Positions 4,366 through 54,650 of a DNA stretch of 64,000 nucleotides are shown piece after piece. The notes under the pieces are model-generated. The model made no database searches. It was not told where the DNA came from and saw only the letters and a list, made by a program, of their open reading frames with translations. Numbering within the stretch: position 1 is the stretch's first letter; each line of letters opens with the position of its first letter. The position numbers were made by a program, and so were the translations under genes. This DNA is from Patescibacteria group bacterium (GTDB lineage: Bacteria; Patescibacteriota; Minisyncoccia; Phycocordibacterales; Phycocordibacteraceae): contig SCTS01000007.1 of NCBI GenBank assembly GCA_004322365.1, positions 18,266 to 82,265 of the forward strand, given 5' to 3'.

Positions 4366-4440
4366 AGGTTCTAGGGACTAGGTTTTAGGTGCTAGCTTTC
4401 GGATTTAAAGCTAGAAGCTAGCACCTGTAACCTGACCTCA
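4366..4440. repeat. modular intergenic repeat (AGGTTCTAGGGACTAGGTTTTAGGTGCTAGC ... AGCTAGAAGCTAGCACCTGTAACCTGACC)
   Basis: Same module vocabulary as 3121-3152 and 18504-18538. Flanks the membrane-protein gene on the side opposite 3121-3152. Confidence 0.6.
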
Positions 4441-5058
4441 ACGGCGGCCAATGATGGTACGGTGTTTGAATTCCAAGACATCGCGAAGCATTCGGTCGCG
4501 TGCCTCAAGACGCTCGGCATACTCTTCCTTTTCTAAAACAGCGTAGCGAAGTGGAAGTGCAGACATGCGCTCAACAGCTCGTACTGATGTCGCAATGCGT
4601 GGATTGTTTGGTTTTTTAGTTACAATCAAAATATCAACCACTCCTCTCTCCTCTCCAGTAAGTACACCCGCAACAACGAGGAGCGTAATACCAGAGACAC
4701 CTCTGAATGCTGACGCAATTGAAGAATCTTCAGGGAGAGTTACGGAATCAAGAAATGTACGAAAAGGAACAGCAAACGGATGCGTTGTATTCAAACTCCA
4801 CAGTATATTTTTACCCTGTGTTCGTGAAGTGAGAATCCGATAATTCTTAAGTGCGCGTAATTCACGCACTGTGACGGCTTTTGGGATGCCTGTGGTGTTT
4901 GAAGCAACAAGGGTAGTTATACGAGAATCTGGCTGAAATAAGAAAAACTTCAAAAGCTTCAAACGCGGAATCGATGAGCAGAGTTGGATGATATCTTTGA
5001 ACATGCAGAGTATTGTACCTGCACCTTTCCGAAAGACCAAAAATCGCAGAAATGACAA
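4438..5058 (-). CDS. hypothetical protein: ArsR-like winged helix followed by a degenerate Pol-beta-type nucleotidyltransferase-like segment
   Basis: 206-aa ORF. Residues about 55-90 (IPKAVTVRELRALKNYRILTSRTQGKNILWSLN) resemble a wHTH recognition helix and wing. Residues about 120-150 (ITLLVVAGVLTGEERGVVDILIV) resemble a minimal-NTase hG[GS]...D.D motif with the second Asp lost. The true start may be internal (MFKD...). Confidence 0.55.
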   Translation of the reverse strand: MSFLRFLVFRKGAGTILCMFKDIIQLCSSIPRLKLLKFFLFQPDSRITTLVASNTTGIPKAVTVRELRALKNYRILTSRTQGKNILWSLNTTHPFAVPFRTFLDSVTLPEDSSIASAFRGVSGITLLVVAGVLTGEERGVVDILIVTKKPNNPRIATSVRAVERMSALPLRYAVLEKEEYAERLEARDRMLRDVLEFKHRTIIGRR

Positions 5059-5082
5059 AAAACAGCAAAAATCTCCGTATAG

Positions 5083-5110
5083 GTATAATTTAACGGTCGT
5101 TAAATTATAC
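5083..5110. promoter_or_regulatory. 13-2-13 perfect palindrome GTATAATTTAACG-GT-CGTTAAATTATAC containing TATAAT on both arms; putative operator/promoter of 4438..5058
   Basis: Perfect inverted repeat 25 nt upstream of the ORF start. Near-identical to the palindrome at 53880-53915. Confidence 0.6.
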
Positions 5111-5198
5111 TATACAGTGCGGAGAACAACGGTGAGTGAATCGAAAAGAGGGAGTGAAAAGATCGGGAGAGCGGGTAAGAAAAAACTAATACATGAAA

Positions 5199-5230
5199 TA
5201 AAAAACGCCCCACTCGGGGCGTTTTTTATT
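5199..5230 (-). terminator. bidirectional terminator after rplL (AACGCCCC-ACTC-GGGGCGTT flanked by A- and T-runs)
   Basis: Hairpin 14 nt downstream of the rplL stop with TTTTTTATTT on the minus strand. Confidence 0.75.
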
Positions 5231-5247
5231 TCAGATTTTAGAAAAAA

Positions 5248-33694: not shown

Positions 33695-33738
33695 CCCCCA
33701 CACATCCCTAATTCGCACGAATTAGGGATGTGTGGGGG
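33695..33738. promoter_or_regulatory. 21-bp perfect inverted repeat CCCCCACACATCCCTAATTCG-CA-CGAATTAGGGATGTGTGGGGG
   Basis: Perfect 21-bp arms with a 2-nt spacer. No U-tract follows on either strand. Confidence 0.5.
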
Positions 33739-33748
33739 CGAGAAAAAA

Positions 33749-34123
33749 TTAAAGGATTTTTAAGAGAGCAAACTTTTCATTGTTGAATGTTCCGAAGCCA
33801 TGTTTATCAAACAAAGCAGGTACACCAGTAACACTCAAAAGTTCATAAATATCTTTTTTCTTCGCGAAGGTTATGCATGCATCAATCAATGCCGTTGCAA
33901 TACCTCTGTGCTGAAAATCTTTAGAAACCGCAAGACTTCTAATTTCACCAAGACGCTTTGAATAAATCACCAGTGCGCAACACCCAACTATCTTCCCGTC
34001 CTCTATGGCAACAAAAAATTCGCTCGCTTTCGGCAAATGCTTTTGCAAAAGTGTATCGGGATATTCTTTGATGAGTTTCTTGATGCCAAGAAAATCCTTG
34101 AGCGATGCCCTTCTTATTTTCAC
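33749..34123 (-). CDS. GNAT-family N-acetyltransferase
   Basis: 124 aa with the acetyl-CoA binding motif …QHRGIATALIDACITFA…. Confidence 0.85.
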   Translation of the reverse strand: MKIRRASLKDFLGIKKLIKEYPDTLLQKHLPKASEFFVAIEDGKIVGCCALVIYSKRLGEIRSLAVSKDFQHRGIATALIDACITFAKKKDIYELLSVTGVPALFDKHGFGTFNNEKFALLKIL

Positions 34124-52004: not shown

Positions 52005-52349
52005 TCATTTTTTATCTTTAAAACGAGAGAGGCACTCGTACGAATAGGTGATAACAATAGAAGCGGCACCCCACAGAAAAGGAAGCCAGAGAGGAAGGCC
52101 GAAAAAATCTGGCGATTCGTAATGCCATACTCCTTTCCCAATTGCGATAGCCTCCGTGAGAGGGCCCCACAGCGCTACAAACACATAGACCGCTGTGATT
52201 TTTTTACTCCTGAGAACCACAAGCATCAGTGCTGAAATCACAAAAAGCGTGAGCGTGAGTATAAAAGACTCACGCCATAGCAGTACCACAGCACTTACAG
52301 ATCCTATGTATCCTAGGACAACGCTCGCTGTTTTAAGGCTCAGTTTCAT
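52005..52349 (-). CDS. hypothetical small membrane protein (114 aa, 3-4 TM)
   Basis: Hydrophobic ORF with no recognisable family. Confidence 0.5.
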   Translation of the reverse strand: MKLSLKTASVVLGYIGSVSAVVLLWRESFILTLTLFVISALMLVVLRSKKITAVYVFVALWGPLTEAIAIGKGVWHYESPDFFGLPLWLPFLWGAASIVITYSYECLSRFKDKK

Positions 52350-52439
52350 AACAAAACGGTATCATAAAAAAATAGAGGGGGAAGAATATCTTAGGTGTGA
52401 TTGGAATAAAAAAAACTTTTAGTGTACTCTGAGCAATTC

Positions 52440-52515
52440 GGGCGATTAGCTCAGTTGGTAGAGCGCTTCATTTACACTGAAGATGTCGCAGGTTCAAGTC
52501 CTGCATCGCCCACCA
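52440..52515 (+). tRNA. tRNA-Val (anticodon TAC) with an encoded CCA
   Basis: GGGCGATTAGCTCAGTTGGTAGAGCGCTTCATTTACACTGAAGATGTCGCAGGTTCAAGTCCTGCATCGCCCACCA. Confidence 0.9.
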
Positions 52516-52674
52516 CAATATAATTTCTTGTTATTATGAGAACCATGCGTTTTATAAAAACACTATGATTCACAGTCGCCACAAAAAAAGTTGGTCTGGG
52601 TTTAACTAAAGTCTTTCATTTGAGGCAGTTGGAATACTGCTAATTTTTATTTTTTAACTAACCACTAACGAACC

Positions 52675-53337
52675 ATGCTCCAATTTACTGAATCATCACT
52701 TAAAAAACTTCTCTTAGCTCTTGCCATTTATCTTGCATCTCTTTTCGCCGCAAACACTCTCGGACTTAAAATCATGCCGTTTCTTTTCGGTACCGGTCTT
52801 TCTGTGGCTGTTTTCTCTTTCCCTATTGTATTTCTCATGACCGATGTCATTGGCGAAGTGTATGGAAAGCGAGTTGCAAAACTCTTCGTACTTGCAGGAT
52901 TCATTGCAACAGCACTCTTCATCCTGTACTCATTCATTTCAATTGCAATGCCGTGGTCTCCAAGAGGCTTGTGGGTAAGCGAAGGATATAACCAAGTCTT
53001 CGGTATTTCCGTCAGAATGGCAATCGCATCTCTAGTCGCATTCGCTATTGCTCAATACCAGGATGTTATTTCATTCTTCTTCTTCAAAAAGATCTTAGGA
53101 AAATCTGGATTCTGGCTTCGTTCAACACTCTCAAATATGTGGTCACAATTTCTCGACACAGTAATTTTTATGGTAATCGCATTTGCAGGCGTGTACTCAA
53201 CATCAACACTTATAGGCATCATGTTTAGTTGGTGGCTCTACAAGGTTGCTATGGGCTTCCTCTATACTCCACTCTCCTACATCGCAATACGCCTACTCAA
53301 AGACAAGAATGAAACCAAAGACCCAGCCTCTGCCTAA
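52675..53337 (+). CDS. queuosine-precursor transporter family (YhhQ/VUT, DUF165) membrane protein
   Basis: 220-aa polytopic protein with the characteristic N-terminal region …LFAANTLGLKIMPF…SFPIVFLMTDVIGEVYGK…. Confidence 0.75.
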   Translation: MLQFTESSLKKLLLALAIYLASLFAANTLGLKIMPFLFGTGLSVAVFSFPIVFLMTDVIGEVYGKRVAKLFVLAGFIATALFILYSFISIAMPWSPRGLWVSEGYNQVFGISVRMAIASLVAFAIAQYQDVISFFFFKKILGKSGFWLRSTLSNMWSQFLDTVIFMVIAFAGVYSTSTLIGIMFSWWLYKVAMGFLYTPLSYIAIRLLKDKNETKDPASA

Positions 53338-53842
53338 AACACGCTTCGTTGCCTATGTAGCAACATCCATCGATGGACGCATCTCACTTGAAAAAAGGAA
53401 GCTTCCTGATTGGACTAGCAAGGAAGATTGGAAGTTCTTCCAGAGCGAACTCGCGCATGCTGATGCAGTTGTTGTAGGAAGAAATACATACCTATCTGCT
53501 CAAAGTCGTCTCCAGAAACGCACAACTTTCGTGCTATCGAGTAGAGTAAAAAATAAGCTCAAAAAAGGTACAGTCACCTTCATCAATCCAGCATGCAACG
53601 ATCTTAAGAAGCTCTTCTCAGTGTATAAGACAGTCGCCATAGTTGGTGGTGTACGGGTCTACCAAACAATGCTCGACAGCAATCTCCTCCACGAGCTCTA
53701 TGTAACTATTGAACCTCTAGTGTTTGGACGAGGAGTTCCAATGTTTTCCGGTGGTTCAAAAACAAAGCAGTTCGAACTCGTCTCCGTAAAAAAACTTAAT
53801 ACAACGAGCACACTTCTTCTTCACTACAAGGTAAAGAAGTAA
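53309..53842 (+). CDS. RibD C-terminal/DHFR-fold reductase family protein; ORF track starts at 53246
   Basis: MKPKTQ…FVAYVATSIDGRISL…WTSKEDWKFF…ADAVVVGRNTY… typical of RibD_C. Overlaps the previous gene by 29 nt. Confidence 0.8.
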   Translation: MKPKTQPLPKTRFVAYVATSIDGRISLEKRKLPDWTSKEDWKFFQSELAHADAVVVGRNTYLSAQSRLQKRTTFVLSSRVKNKLKKGTVTFINPACNDLKKLFSVYKTVAIVGGVRVYQTMLDSNLLHELYVTIEPLVFGRGVPMFSGGSKTKQFELVSVKKLNTTSTLLLHYKVKK

Positions 53843-53879
53843 CCCTCACTCAATTATTAAATGTGTAAAAAATAATCGA

Positions 53880-53915
53880 TATAGTATAATCTAACGATCG
53901 TTAGATTATACTATA
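53880..53915. promoter_or_regulatory. 17-2-17 perfect palindrome TATAGTATAATCTAACG-AT-CGTTAGATTATACTATA; putative operator/promoter of the CofE-like gene 53943..54650
   Basis: Perfect 36-bp palindrome 28 nt upstream of the ATG. The core GTATAAT[T/C]TAACG..CGTTA[A/G]ATTATAC is shared with 5083-5110. Confidence 0.6.
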
Positions 53916-53942
53916 CAGCTATCCTTAACCTACCTAGGGCAT

Positions 53943-54650
53943 ATGCATGTGCAAGCAATCAAAACACGGGTGTTCAAAAAAGACGAGGATCTTTCTCTGT
54001 TCATTTTTGAATATCTAAAAAAAATCCCGGAGCGTTCAGTACTTGTAATTGCCTCAAAAATTGTCGCGCTCTCCGAAGGACGCACTGCACAGATATCTGA
54101 AAAAAATAAACTAATAAAAAGAGAGAGTTCGTGGGCACTTAAGACGGGAAAAGTTTGGCTCACTGAAAAGAGTGGAATGATTATGGCGAATGCTGGCATT
54201 GATGAATCAAATGCCCAAGGAGAATTGGTACTTCTACCAAAAGACAGTTTTGCTTCAGCGGAGCGTTTGCGAAAAATGTTGCAAAAAAAATACCGAGTGA
54301 AAAACCTCGGCATCGTAATTACCGATAGCGCGCTCATGCCCCTCAGAGCTGGTGTAGTGGGTGCCGCGCTTGGATATGCAGGCTTTAAGGGGGTGCGAGA
54401 TTACCGAGGAAAGAAAGACGTCTTTGGAAGAAAAATGGAAATGTCGCGTACCAATGTTACTGATAGCCTAGCTACCGCCGGCACGCTCGTTATGGGTGAG
54501 GGAGCAGAACAACAACCACTGGCGCTTATTACTGAAGCTCCTGTTGAGTTTGTAGAAAAAACAAATAAGAAAGAACTAAAGATTGCAGCGAAGGAGGATA
54601 TTTTTTGGCCGTTGTTGAAACGGTACATTCAAAAAACGGGTCGAGACTGA
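53943..54650 (+). CDS. CofE-like gamma-glutamyl ligase family protein, paralog 2
   Basis: 235 aa: …SVLVIASKIVALSEGR…, …NLGIVITDSALMPLRAGVVGAALGYAGF…. Same fold as 38791..39531. Confidence 0.8.
   Translation: MHVQAIKTRVFKKDEDLSLFIFEYLKKIPERSVLVIASKIVALSEGRTAQISEKNKLIKRESSWALKTGKVWLTEKSGMIMANAGIDESNAQGELVLLPKDSFASAERLRKMLQKKYRVKNLGIVITDSALMPLRAGVVGAALGYAGFKGVRDYRGKKDVFGRKMEMSRTNVTDSLATAGTLVMGEGAEQQPLALITEAPVEFVEKTNKKELKIAAKEDIFWPLLKRYIQKTGRD

Follow-up and report, generated by a model that had tools for sequence, protein, structure and literature searches.

Comparison across Patescibacteria genomes indicates that the palindrome at positions 53880-53915 of the window (the whole 64,000-nt stretch of DNA analysed) belongs to a family of long and perfect palindromes, extragenic and lineage-specific, that is found in Paceibacterota. 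Its membership of this family, its conservation, the constraint on its symmetry, the history of its insertion, and the linkage of the family to the gene of a small protein that we call mini-PaaX are shown below. We give roughly even odds (a probability of about 0.5) to the reading that the palindrome is a REP-like, protein-recognised element, with mini-PaaX as the candidate partner, that is under a hairpin or cruciform constraint and controls the CofE-like gene from an intercistronic position.

The palindrome (copy 2; no strand assigned) reads TATAGTATAATCTAACGATCGTTAGATTATACTATA and is perfect over 36 nt, its two 18-nt arms (TATAGTATAATCTAACGA|TCGTTAGATTATACTATA) being 100% complementary and joined without a spacer. 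Inspection of the window at this position confirmed that the perfect 17-2-17 palindrome described in an earlier, sequence-only reading of this DNA is the same thing as the 18 + 18 arrangement given here. Folded as a hairpin, copy 2 forms 16 pairs and a GAUC loop, and its centre, CGATCG (53895-53900, no strand assigned), is one instance of the CG-RY-CG centre that recurs in the family. Copy 2 occupies the 100-nt gap (53843-53942) between a DHFR-fold gene and the CofE-like gene, as that reading had placed it, and ends 27 nt before the CofE-like start codon. An A6 tract (53867-53872, plus strand), which reads as a T-run on the minus strand, lies 7 nt upstream of copy 2, and no T-run follows copy 2 on the sense strand. 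Chance is excluded as the origin of copy 2: across the whole window, 3 matches to the 18-nt half-site were found with up to 3 mismatches (0.02 expected) and 2 matches to the 26-nt gapped core (0.00 expected), and when the window was shuffled 30 times with its composition preserved, perfect arms reached no more than 7-11 nt, versus 18 nt in copy 2. Rfam 15 returned no match at either copy of the palindrome at the gathering threshold over the whole window, nor any at E ≤ 1 in 52300-54100.

The other copy in the window (copy 1; 5078-5114, no strand assigned) lies 48.8 kb away and is an imperfect palindrome, TATAGGTATAATTTAACG GT CGTTAAATTATACTATA, with a perfect 13-2-13 core and a left arm bulged by 1 nt; as had been noted, copy 2 exceeds it in both length and perfection. 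The chance tests and the gene map also bear out the view that a non-random, intergenic motif is common to both sites. Copy 1 lies between the rplL intrinsic terminator (5194-5233, minus strand), a canonical GC-rich structure that exemplifies the ordinary terminators of this genome, and the promoter of an ArsR/SmtB-like wHTH gene of 188 aa (4438-5004, minus strand; a weak family match), which is downstream of copy 1. The ArsR-like gene has its own conserved GGTACAAT-N7-ATG promoter in all homolog loci, ~75-110 nt downstream of copy 1, an arrangement (5002-5075, minus strand) suggestive of a transcript without a leader. Five T5-6 tracts recur with a spacing of ~9-10 nt in the stretch from copy 1 to this promoter (5002-5075), potentially marking bent DNA. 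Because the neighbour of copy 1 is this ArsR-like wHTH gene and no homologue of CofE, the idea of an operator shared by CofE paralogs does not hold.

Orthologues of copy 1 are present at four of the fetched loci (designated by L numbers; L011, L028, L029, and L044), the one in L044 being a mirrored variant (..GGATAATATGACG AC CGTCATATTATCC..), and L133 (CAYNOO) carries a palindrome of different sequence, CCCCATAACTAATAAATGTCCGACCGGACATTTATTAGTTATGGGG, in the same place. At the more distant ArsR-like loci L042 and L045 the palindrome is absent, and the rplL terminator abuts the GGTACAAT-N7-ATG promoter; the absence of any palindrome from these loci weakens the candidacy of the ArsR-like protein as the cognate regulator. 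Separately, the rplL to ArsR-like spacer of L044 (9520-9800; JAWVGZ01) contains a ~60-nt direct duplication, gtgcgagtactcaacttttccagccgtgtccgtcatgagaacatgcgg.ccaaaggtg, whose copies lie ~200 nt apart.

We scanned one genome per species with ATAATNTAACGNNCGTTANATTAT, a core pattern that specifies 20 bases, and recovered 41 loci, ~38 of which are in Patescibacteria and 3 of which look like chance matches. The Paceibacterota MAG JBBAAE01 contributed 13 matches, JAGOSG01 10, and VMHB01 8, with further matches in JBBTXB01, JBDRJU01, and Saccharibacteria-labelled bins. These strict counts (8-13 per related genome) are a lower bound, and a relaxed scan of the fetched DNA yielded additional variant copies that the strict pattern had missed; the density of the family is roughly one copy per 30-50 kb. 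With ~8-13 strict copies per related genome plus variants, the palindrome is not an operator private to two genes, and the sequence-only reading of it as a shared operator is too narrow. The family consensus is CTGTATAGTATAATYTAACG-RY-CGTTARATTATACTATACAG. All real copies are intergenic, lying between tandem, divergent (L004/L038, L037), and convergent genes (the L023/L031/L033 group and the L026/L035 pair), the last a setting in which a promoter would not be expected. Their neighbours, identified by inspection of N-terminal sequences, are functionally unrelated (GltX, PheS, GlmS, YchF, PolA/HolA-like, RecR, ParB, AhcY, Fmt, and RNase R), and Pfam searches confirmed an acyltransferase, a NUDIX protein, and an exonuclease. 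Thirteen family sites are orthologous among two to three genomes.

The repeated unit is the palindrome alone, except in the L001, L002, and L013 groups, in which extra flanking sequence is shared; a larger repeat unit was rejected, as the extra flanks are limited to these groups. In L002 (900-1170), L013, L017, and L001, the palindrome lies within a ~150-nt imperfect inverted repeat that carries the motif CTGGCACC, and this subgroup sits upstream of GltX, HolA-like, and RecR genes. No target-site duplications were detected at family copies, whose flanks are complementary and not direct repeats, and no clear insertion polymorphism was found between close genomes, empty sites occurring only in distant relatives. 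A phage origin was likewise rejected, with 0 matches in viral contigs and no match of the mini-PaaX protein in phage genomes. A LexA/SOS box was considered because several neighbours looked repair-related (RecR, exonucleases, and a glycosylase) and was set aside, since others are unrelated (GltX, PheS, GlmS, YchF, and ParB); a passage of PMC7739468 that cites a Patescibacteria LexA motif among direct-repeat LexA motifs also counts against it. Two short contigs, L005 (JAGXTH01, labelled 'Simkania sp.') and L001 (CAYGDK01, labelled 'Saccharibacteria'), bear the Paceibacterota-type palindrome; L005 is near-identical to the VMHB01 locus L025, and both contigs are probably mis-binned.

A single protein gene recurs beside these palindromes. 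In L036 (JBBAAE01) and L018 (JBDRJU01), homologous ~190-aa genes that are 46% identical have a palindrome on both sides, in each case that genome's own variant, and the homologous gene in L134 is flanked on both sides likewise. The encoded protein, mini-PaaX, matches Pfam PaaX_M (E 1e-20) and NCBIfam PaaX (1e-12), and scores 30 bits against cas2 (cut-off 24.5); PaaX_M and Cas2 were the only matches, with none to Y1_Tnp. Its PDB match by sequence is PaaX (8a39), and an AlphaFold model (built from 30 homologs, with a mean pLDDT of 61 and low confidence over the N-terminal 56 residues) matched the same structure by fold (E 7e-5), followed by many Cas2 structures. Mini-PaaX is thus a PaaX-type winged helix (wHTH) joined to a Cas2-fold domain; in public sources it is named either 'PaaX' or 'CRISPR-associated endonuclease Cas2'. 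The Cas2-type FDI and QxSVW motifs are conserved, as are the YPYDCED and KWDxKW motifs, the latter two by construction, as they served to fetch the loci.

We surveyed 80 metagenomic loci (L046-L125) encoding relatives of mini-PaaX that are 40-56% identical. Long, near-perfect, AT-rich palindromes lie upstream of the gene, downstream of it, or both at 33 of the 80 loci, and by the criteria used a detectable palindrome is absent from about half. The upstream palindromes end ~5-50 nt before the start codon, and the downstream ones begin ~3-75 nt after the stop codon. Under strict criteria, 38 palindromes fall within 250 nt of the gene ends at 28 of the 80 loci, giving a density of 0.91 per kb in these regions versus 0.023 elsewhere (~39-fold enrichment). 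Within one locus the upstream and downstream palindromes are near-identical, and between lineages their sequences differ; their centre is CGRYCG at 22 loci and GCTATAGC at 11. About half of the downstream palindromes face a convergent gene and are therefore not operators for the next gene. Extra dispersed copies were found in L062 and L082. From this co-localisation and co-variation, mini-PaaX is the most likely candidate for a partner of the palindrome family. No mini-PaaX gene lies within the 64-kb window, and we therefore presume its presence in this genome from the close relatives L036 and L134. An incomplete literature search found nothing on a pairing of mini-PaaX with repeats, on PaaX together with Cas2, on PaaX in Patescibacteria, or on regulon motifs in the CPR.

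Several further observations concern these loci. The proteins of the CGRYCG- and GCTATAGC-centre classes are least alike at residues 70/71 (in the putative recognition helix) and 155 (in LQ[N/D]SVW, a motif of the Cas2-like domain); identity within and between the two classes is equal (~48%), and as discriminating residues these were set aside as a weak signal confounded by phylogeny. A 103-aa gene also has palindromes on both sides in two genomes (L027, 7081-7128 and 7561-7616; L037, 568-623 and 1041-1096), an arrangement like that of the mini-PaaX gene. The window itself holds a second long palindrome at 33695-33738, CCCCCACACATCCCTAATTCGCACGAATTAGGGATGTGTGGGGG, with 21 pairs and the centre CG-CA-CG, located 10 nt after the stop codon of a minus-strand ORF of 124 aa (33749-34123) that we take, from its sequence alone, to encode a GNAT acetyltransferase. 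This palindrome resembles those beside the mini-PaaX genes of other lineages (e.g., L053) and may belong to another family within this genome. At 59517-59563, a perfect palindrome of 47 nt (TCCGCAAATACAAAATGGCGCC-T-AAGGCGCCATTTTGTATTTGCGGA) overlaps the 3' end of tRNA-Ser (59434-59521).

What constrains the palindromes can be read from an alignment of 51 family copies, in which 26 pairs were tested for covariation. Changes on both sides were found in 20 of the 26 pairs. The covariation score was 0.264 versus 0.103 in shuffles (0 of 500 reached 0.264) and at most 0.08 with slid partners; in this test the inner columns are biased, the copies having been picked by similarity to the palindromic consensus, and the outer columns 6-13, which were unused in copy selection, also covary strongly. 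More specifically, the stems reach 38-56 nt through copy-specific complementary sequence, and substitutions are mirrored between the arms: TTAACG..CGTTAA in one of the orthologues L037 and L027 corresponds to TTCACG..CGTGAA in the other, TATAAT → TTTAAT is paired with ATTATA → ATTAAA in four copies, and AGT changes to AGG or AGC in a further mirrored arm change. Alignment columns 18-19, 25-27, 30-32, 34, and 37-39 are invariant; in each arm, the few invariant positions fall in TAAT-N-TAACG. The centre dinucleotide (AT in 17, GT in 17, AC in 15, and GC in 2 of the 51 copies) is invariably a purine followed by a pyrimidine and is mostly non-complementary, so that the two centre bases appear to need no pairing and to behave like a hairpin loop or a dyad centre. 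The predicted hairpin has a stability of -23 kcal/mol as RNA (z -4.6) and -11.6 kcal/mol as DNA (z -6.1).

At an operator bound by a homodimer, a mirrored mutation would not restore binding. Because mirrored changes dominate and a homodimer would not benefit from them, we infer intrastrand pairing with a few base-specific contacts, and the symmetry points to a hairpin or cruciform constraint, in DNA or RNA, and not to a plain dimer operator. Perfect symmetry could also come from template-switch (quasipalindrome) mutation, an alternative that needs no selection. Neither the loop dinucleotide nor G-T mismatches showed an evident strand bias relative to transcription, and by inspection the mismatches of imperfect copies do not favour G-U on the sense strand; thus, an RNA-level role is without specific support.

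These findings bear directly on the possibility, which we consider unlikely, that the palindrome is a classical duplex-DNA operator, bound by a homodimeric repressor whose regulon is small. This repressor could be the ArsR-like wHTH protein; copy 1 would then serve autoregulation, and copy 2 the repression of an internal promoter for the CofE-like gene. Such a role would suit the location of copy 2, which lies 27 nt upstream of the CofE-like ATG, includes the hexamers TATACT and TATAAT, has an A-tract upstream, and is conserved at its site in six genomes; copy 1 is found upstream of the ArsR-like gene in the window, L011, L028, L029, and L044 (with a different palindrome in L133), and each half-site has invariant positions around two centre bases that vary independently. 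In contrast, there are tens of copies per genome, some of them between convergent genes (L023/L031/L033, L026/L035, and about half of those downstream of mini-PaaX), and the stems are longer than any plausible footprint. Mirrored changes dominate, although a mirror mutation repairs nothing in a homodimer model, and neither independent half-sites nor restriction to promoter-bearing regions is seen in the family. Moreover, L042 and L045 have the ArsR-like gene without a palindrome, copy 1 lies ~75-110 nt upstream of that gene's own promoter, and the promoter scan was empty at copy 2.

The earlier proposal of an internal promoter or operator at copy 2 therefore stands in part: the site is conserved, it breaks up a tight operon, and a regulatory role is plausible, but the promoter scan found no promoter, and the mirrored changes and convergent copies are unlike what a dimer operator would predict. 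Of all the readings we assign the lowest probability to that of a promoter element, in which the arms would supply -10 boxes (TATAAT, 53885-53890; TATACT, 53907-53912) and the A6 tract, at approximately -47 to -52 from a start near 53919, would act as an UP element. Most arm variants do keep a TAnnnT hexamer, but the scan called no sigma-70 promoter at 53860-53942, and inspection found no -35-like hexamer there, at 16-18 nt spacing or otherwise. In four copies, the mirrored TTTAAT variant has lost the A that is critical to a -10 box; the copies between convergent genes would drive antisense transcription; and the conserved GGTACAAT-N7-ATG promoter that serves the ArsR-like gene lies apart from the palindrome.

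A stable fold is also what would be expected of an RNA hairpin that works without a dedicated protein, i.e., one that acts as an intrinsic terminator or attenuator, stabilises 3' ends, or forms an intercistronic stem for RNase III processing, a reading to which we attach little probability. Many copies have A- and T-runs next to a GC-richer stem base and lie after the 3' ends of genes or between convergent genes (L015, L026, L033, and L035); in these four loci the runs abut the stem, giving the look of a bidirectional terminator. The terminator scan flagged copy 2 on the minus strand, and REP doublets flanked by A and T runs have been proposed to attenuate transcription (PMC3337134). However, copy 2 has no T-run on the sense strand, and the same is true by inspection of about half of the copies in tandem contexts. 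Whereas some family copies have the makeup of an intrinsic terminator, copy 2 has only 3 GC pairs in 17, and its only T-run is antisense and 7 nt away. Ordinary terminators here are GC-rich and variable in sequence, and one of them already precedes copy 1; a plain hairpin would need neither a conserved arm sequence nor a link to one protein family, and copies occur between divergent genes as well (L004/L038, L037).

The surroundings of copy 2 record how it came to be there. The cluster begins with a Vut_1 (YhhQ-type) transporter gene (52675-53337, plus strand) and continues with a RibD_C/DHFR_1-fold gene of 177 aa (53309-53842, plus strand), the 100-nt spacer that carries copy 2 (53843-53942, plus strand), and the CofE-like F420_ligase gene (53943-54650, plus strand). 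The best NCBIfam match of the CofE-like gene is TIGR04132, 'putative folate metabolism gamma-glutamate ligase', and a conserved, Shine-Dalgarno-like AGGG motif lies 3 nt before its ATG. Orthologues of copy 2 occupy the same site in six genomes (those of the window, L008, L126, L127, L128, and L129), among which CofE identity falls to 74%; across this set the upstream flank of the palindrome diverges until it can no longer be aligned, yet the arms stay nearly intact. In L127 and L129, TATAAAGTAACG..CGTTACTTTATA replaces TATAATCTAACG..CGTTAGATTATA, with two changes per arm that are all mirrored, and the orthologues in L126 and L128 have 1-2 unmirrored changes. The spacer with its palindrome is absent from more distant relatives: in L130 (CofE identity 70%) the gap is 6 nt, in L131 (68%) it is 45 nt and the DHFR gene is missing, and in L132 (62%) the genes overlap, with no palindrome in any of the three. 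Since these relatives have a tight operon without the palindrome, comparison indicates that the spacer and palindrome are a derived insertion that has been retained since, which agrees with the earlier suggestion that copy 2 breaks up an otherwise operon-like cluster. The empty-site comparison inside the window covered two orthologous regions, the only ones that overlapped the fetched loci. The Vut_1/DHFR-fold/TIGR04132 cluster (52675-54650) is syntenic across relatives and in L132 runs on into dCMP deaminase, MazG-like, DHFR, and thymidylate synthase genes; together with this extension, its gene content suggests a folate/thymidylate salvage module.

Insertion into a once-tight operon, lineage-specific families, and the decaying orthologues in L126 and L128 (1-2 unmirrored changes) are also what would be left by a selfish miniature element, and copy 2 could be a neutral relic of one, with no function here and with its perfection kept by template-switch mutation. 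We nevertheless find a relic very improbable: the palindrome has been retained while the surrounding intergenic DNA has diverged beyond alignment, target-site duplications are absent and the flanks are complementary, and the family has a low copy number with stable positions in 13 ortholog groups.

Among known systems, the REP/REPIN-RAYT pairs (REPtrons) are the closest described analogue of the REP-like, protein-recognised element favoured here; the family lacks defining features of these systems and hence is no member. REP/REPIN-RAYT systems comprise extragenic hairpin repeats that are vertically inherited and lineage-specific, with one protein gene flanked by the repeats, and protein binding has been proposed to tune neighbouring genes (PMC3337134, PMC3733652). 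Similarly, the present family is extragenic, palindromic, hairpin-forming, lineage-specific, and vertically inherited at fixed positions, its copies being dispersed at ~8-13 strict sites per related genome plus variants; some copies have A and T runs, and a single protein gene is flanked by the repeat. REPs are defined by a GTAG or CGTC tag at one end and by an imperfect palindrome (PMC3733652). In contrast, the consensus of this family, CTGTATAGTATAAT...ATTATACTATACAG, has no GTAG or CGTC tag and is centred on CGRYCG, its palindromes are perfect, 36-56 nt long, and AT-rich, and it probably numbers tens of copies as opposed to hundreds. The flanked gene also differs: RAYT is an HUH/Y1 tyrosine transposase, whereas the protein here combines a PaaX-type wHTH with a Cas2 fold.

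Comparisons with other inverted repeats give a similarly mixed result. PaaX binds inverted-repeat operators near promoters, and mini-PaaX shares the winged helix and the middle Cas2-like domain of the PaaX of the E. coli and Pseudomonas phenylacetate regulon. Unlike PaaX, it is only ~190 aa long, has no C-terminal domain, keeps the Cas2-type FDI and QxSVW motifs, and has no paa genes nearby; and the palindromes far exceed PaaX operators in length, are dispersed, and occur between convergent genes as well. CIRCE, the target of HrcA, is a conserved inverted repeat that acts both as a DNA operator and as an mRNA element, has the form 9-N9-9, keeps one sequence across phyla, and is found in chaperone operons only. 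The family resembles it as a conserved inverted repeat that is found upstream of genes and could work in DNA as well as in RNA, but its arms are lineage-specific and its neighbouring genes are functionally unrelated. Like CRISPR repeats with Cas1-Cas2, the copies are palindromic, lineage-specific, and linked to a Cas2-fold protein; unlike them, they occur singly at distances of tens of kb, form no arrays and have no spacers, and the Cas2 fold is fused to a wHTH. No cas1 was found near the inspected loci.

Taken together, the design of the element, in which AT-rich arms are apparently kept self-complementary around an unpaired CG-RY-CG centre with a few invariant positions, is the pattern expected of a hairpin or cruciform that would be recognised by a protein. 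Mini-PaaX would recognise its lineage's own version of the palindrome, which flanks the mini-PaaX gene on one or both sides. At the site studied here, the element arrived with ~95 nt of spacer in an ancestrally tight Vut_1-DHFR-CofE operon and has been retained since; copy 2 is a putative control point between cistrons, 27 nt ahead of the CofE-like start codon. A protein bound there would act as a roadblock or repressor, and/or the polycistronic mRNA would form a 16-bp stem by which expression of the CofE-like gene is uncoupled from that of Vut_1 and DHFR. We infer from sequence comparison the binding of mini-PaaX, an active form that is either DNA or RNA, and an effect on how strongly the CofE-like gene is expressed. 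That copy 2 regulates or insulates is plausible, because the motif is shared, lies 27 nt upstream of the CofE-like start, interrupts an operon, and is kept in six genomes.

A wider and more tentative possibility is that Patescibacteria harbour an undescribed partnership, in which a wHTH + Cas2-fold protein recognises, and perhaps cuts or propagates, hairpin palindromes centred on CGRYCG or GCTATAGC that flank its own gene and have spread to tens of intergenic sites, copy 2 having been domesticated so that it controls the CofE-like gene. If this is true, protein and palindromes would together make up a replicator of the REPIN/RAYT kind, though with a non-HUH enzyme, or else a network that serves genome structure and regulation throughout the genome. 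The findings also advise caution in annotation: a single copy of the palindrome should not be taken for a gene-specific operator, and mini-PaaX proteins should not be named 'CRISPR-associated Cas2' or 'phenylacetate repressor'. Recognisable regulators are very few in Patescibacteria, whose gene control is almost unexplored. If tied to one small DNA-binding protein, the palindrome family would offer a concrete handle on regulation or genome structure in these organisms, and would carry the REP/RAYT idea, in which a family of repeats co-evolves with the single-copy gene of a protein, to a different, Cas2-related fold.
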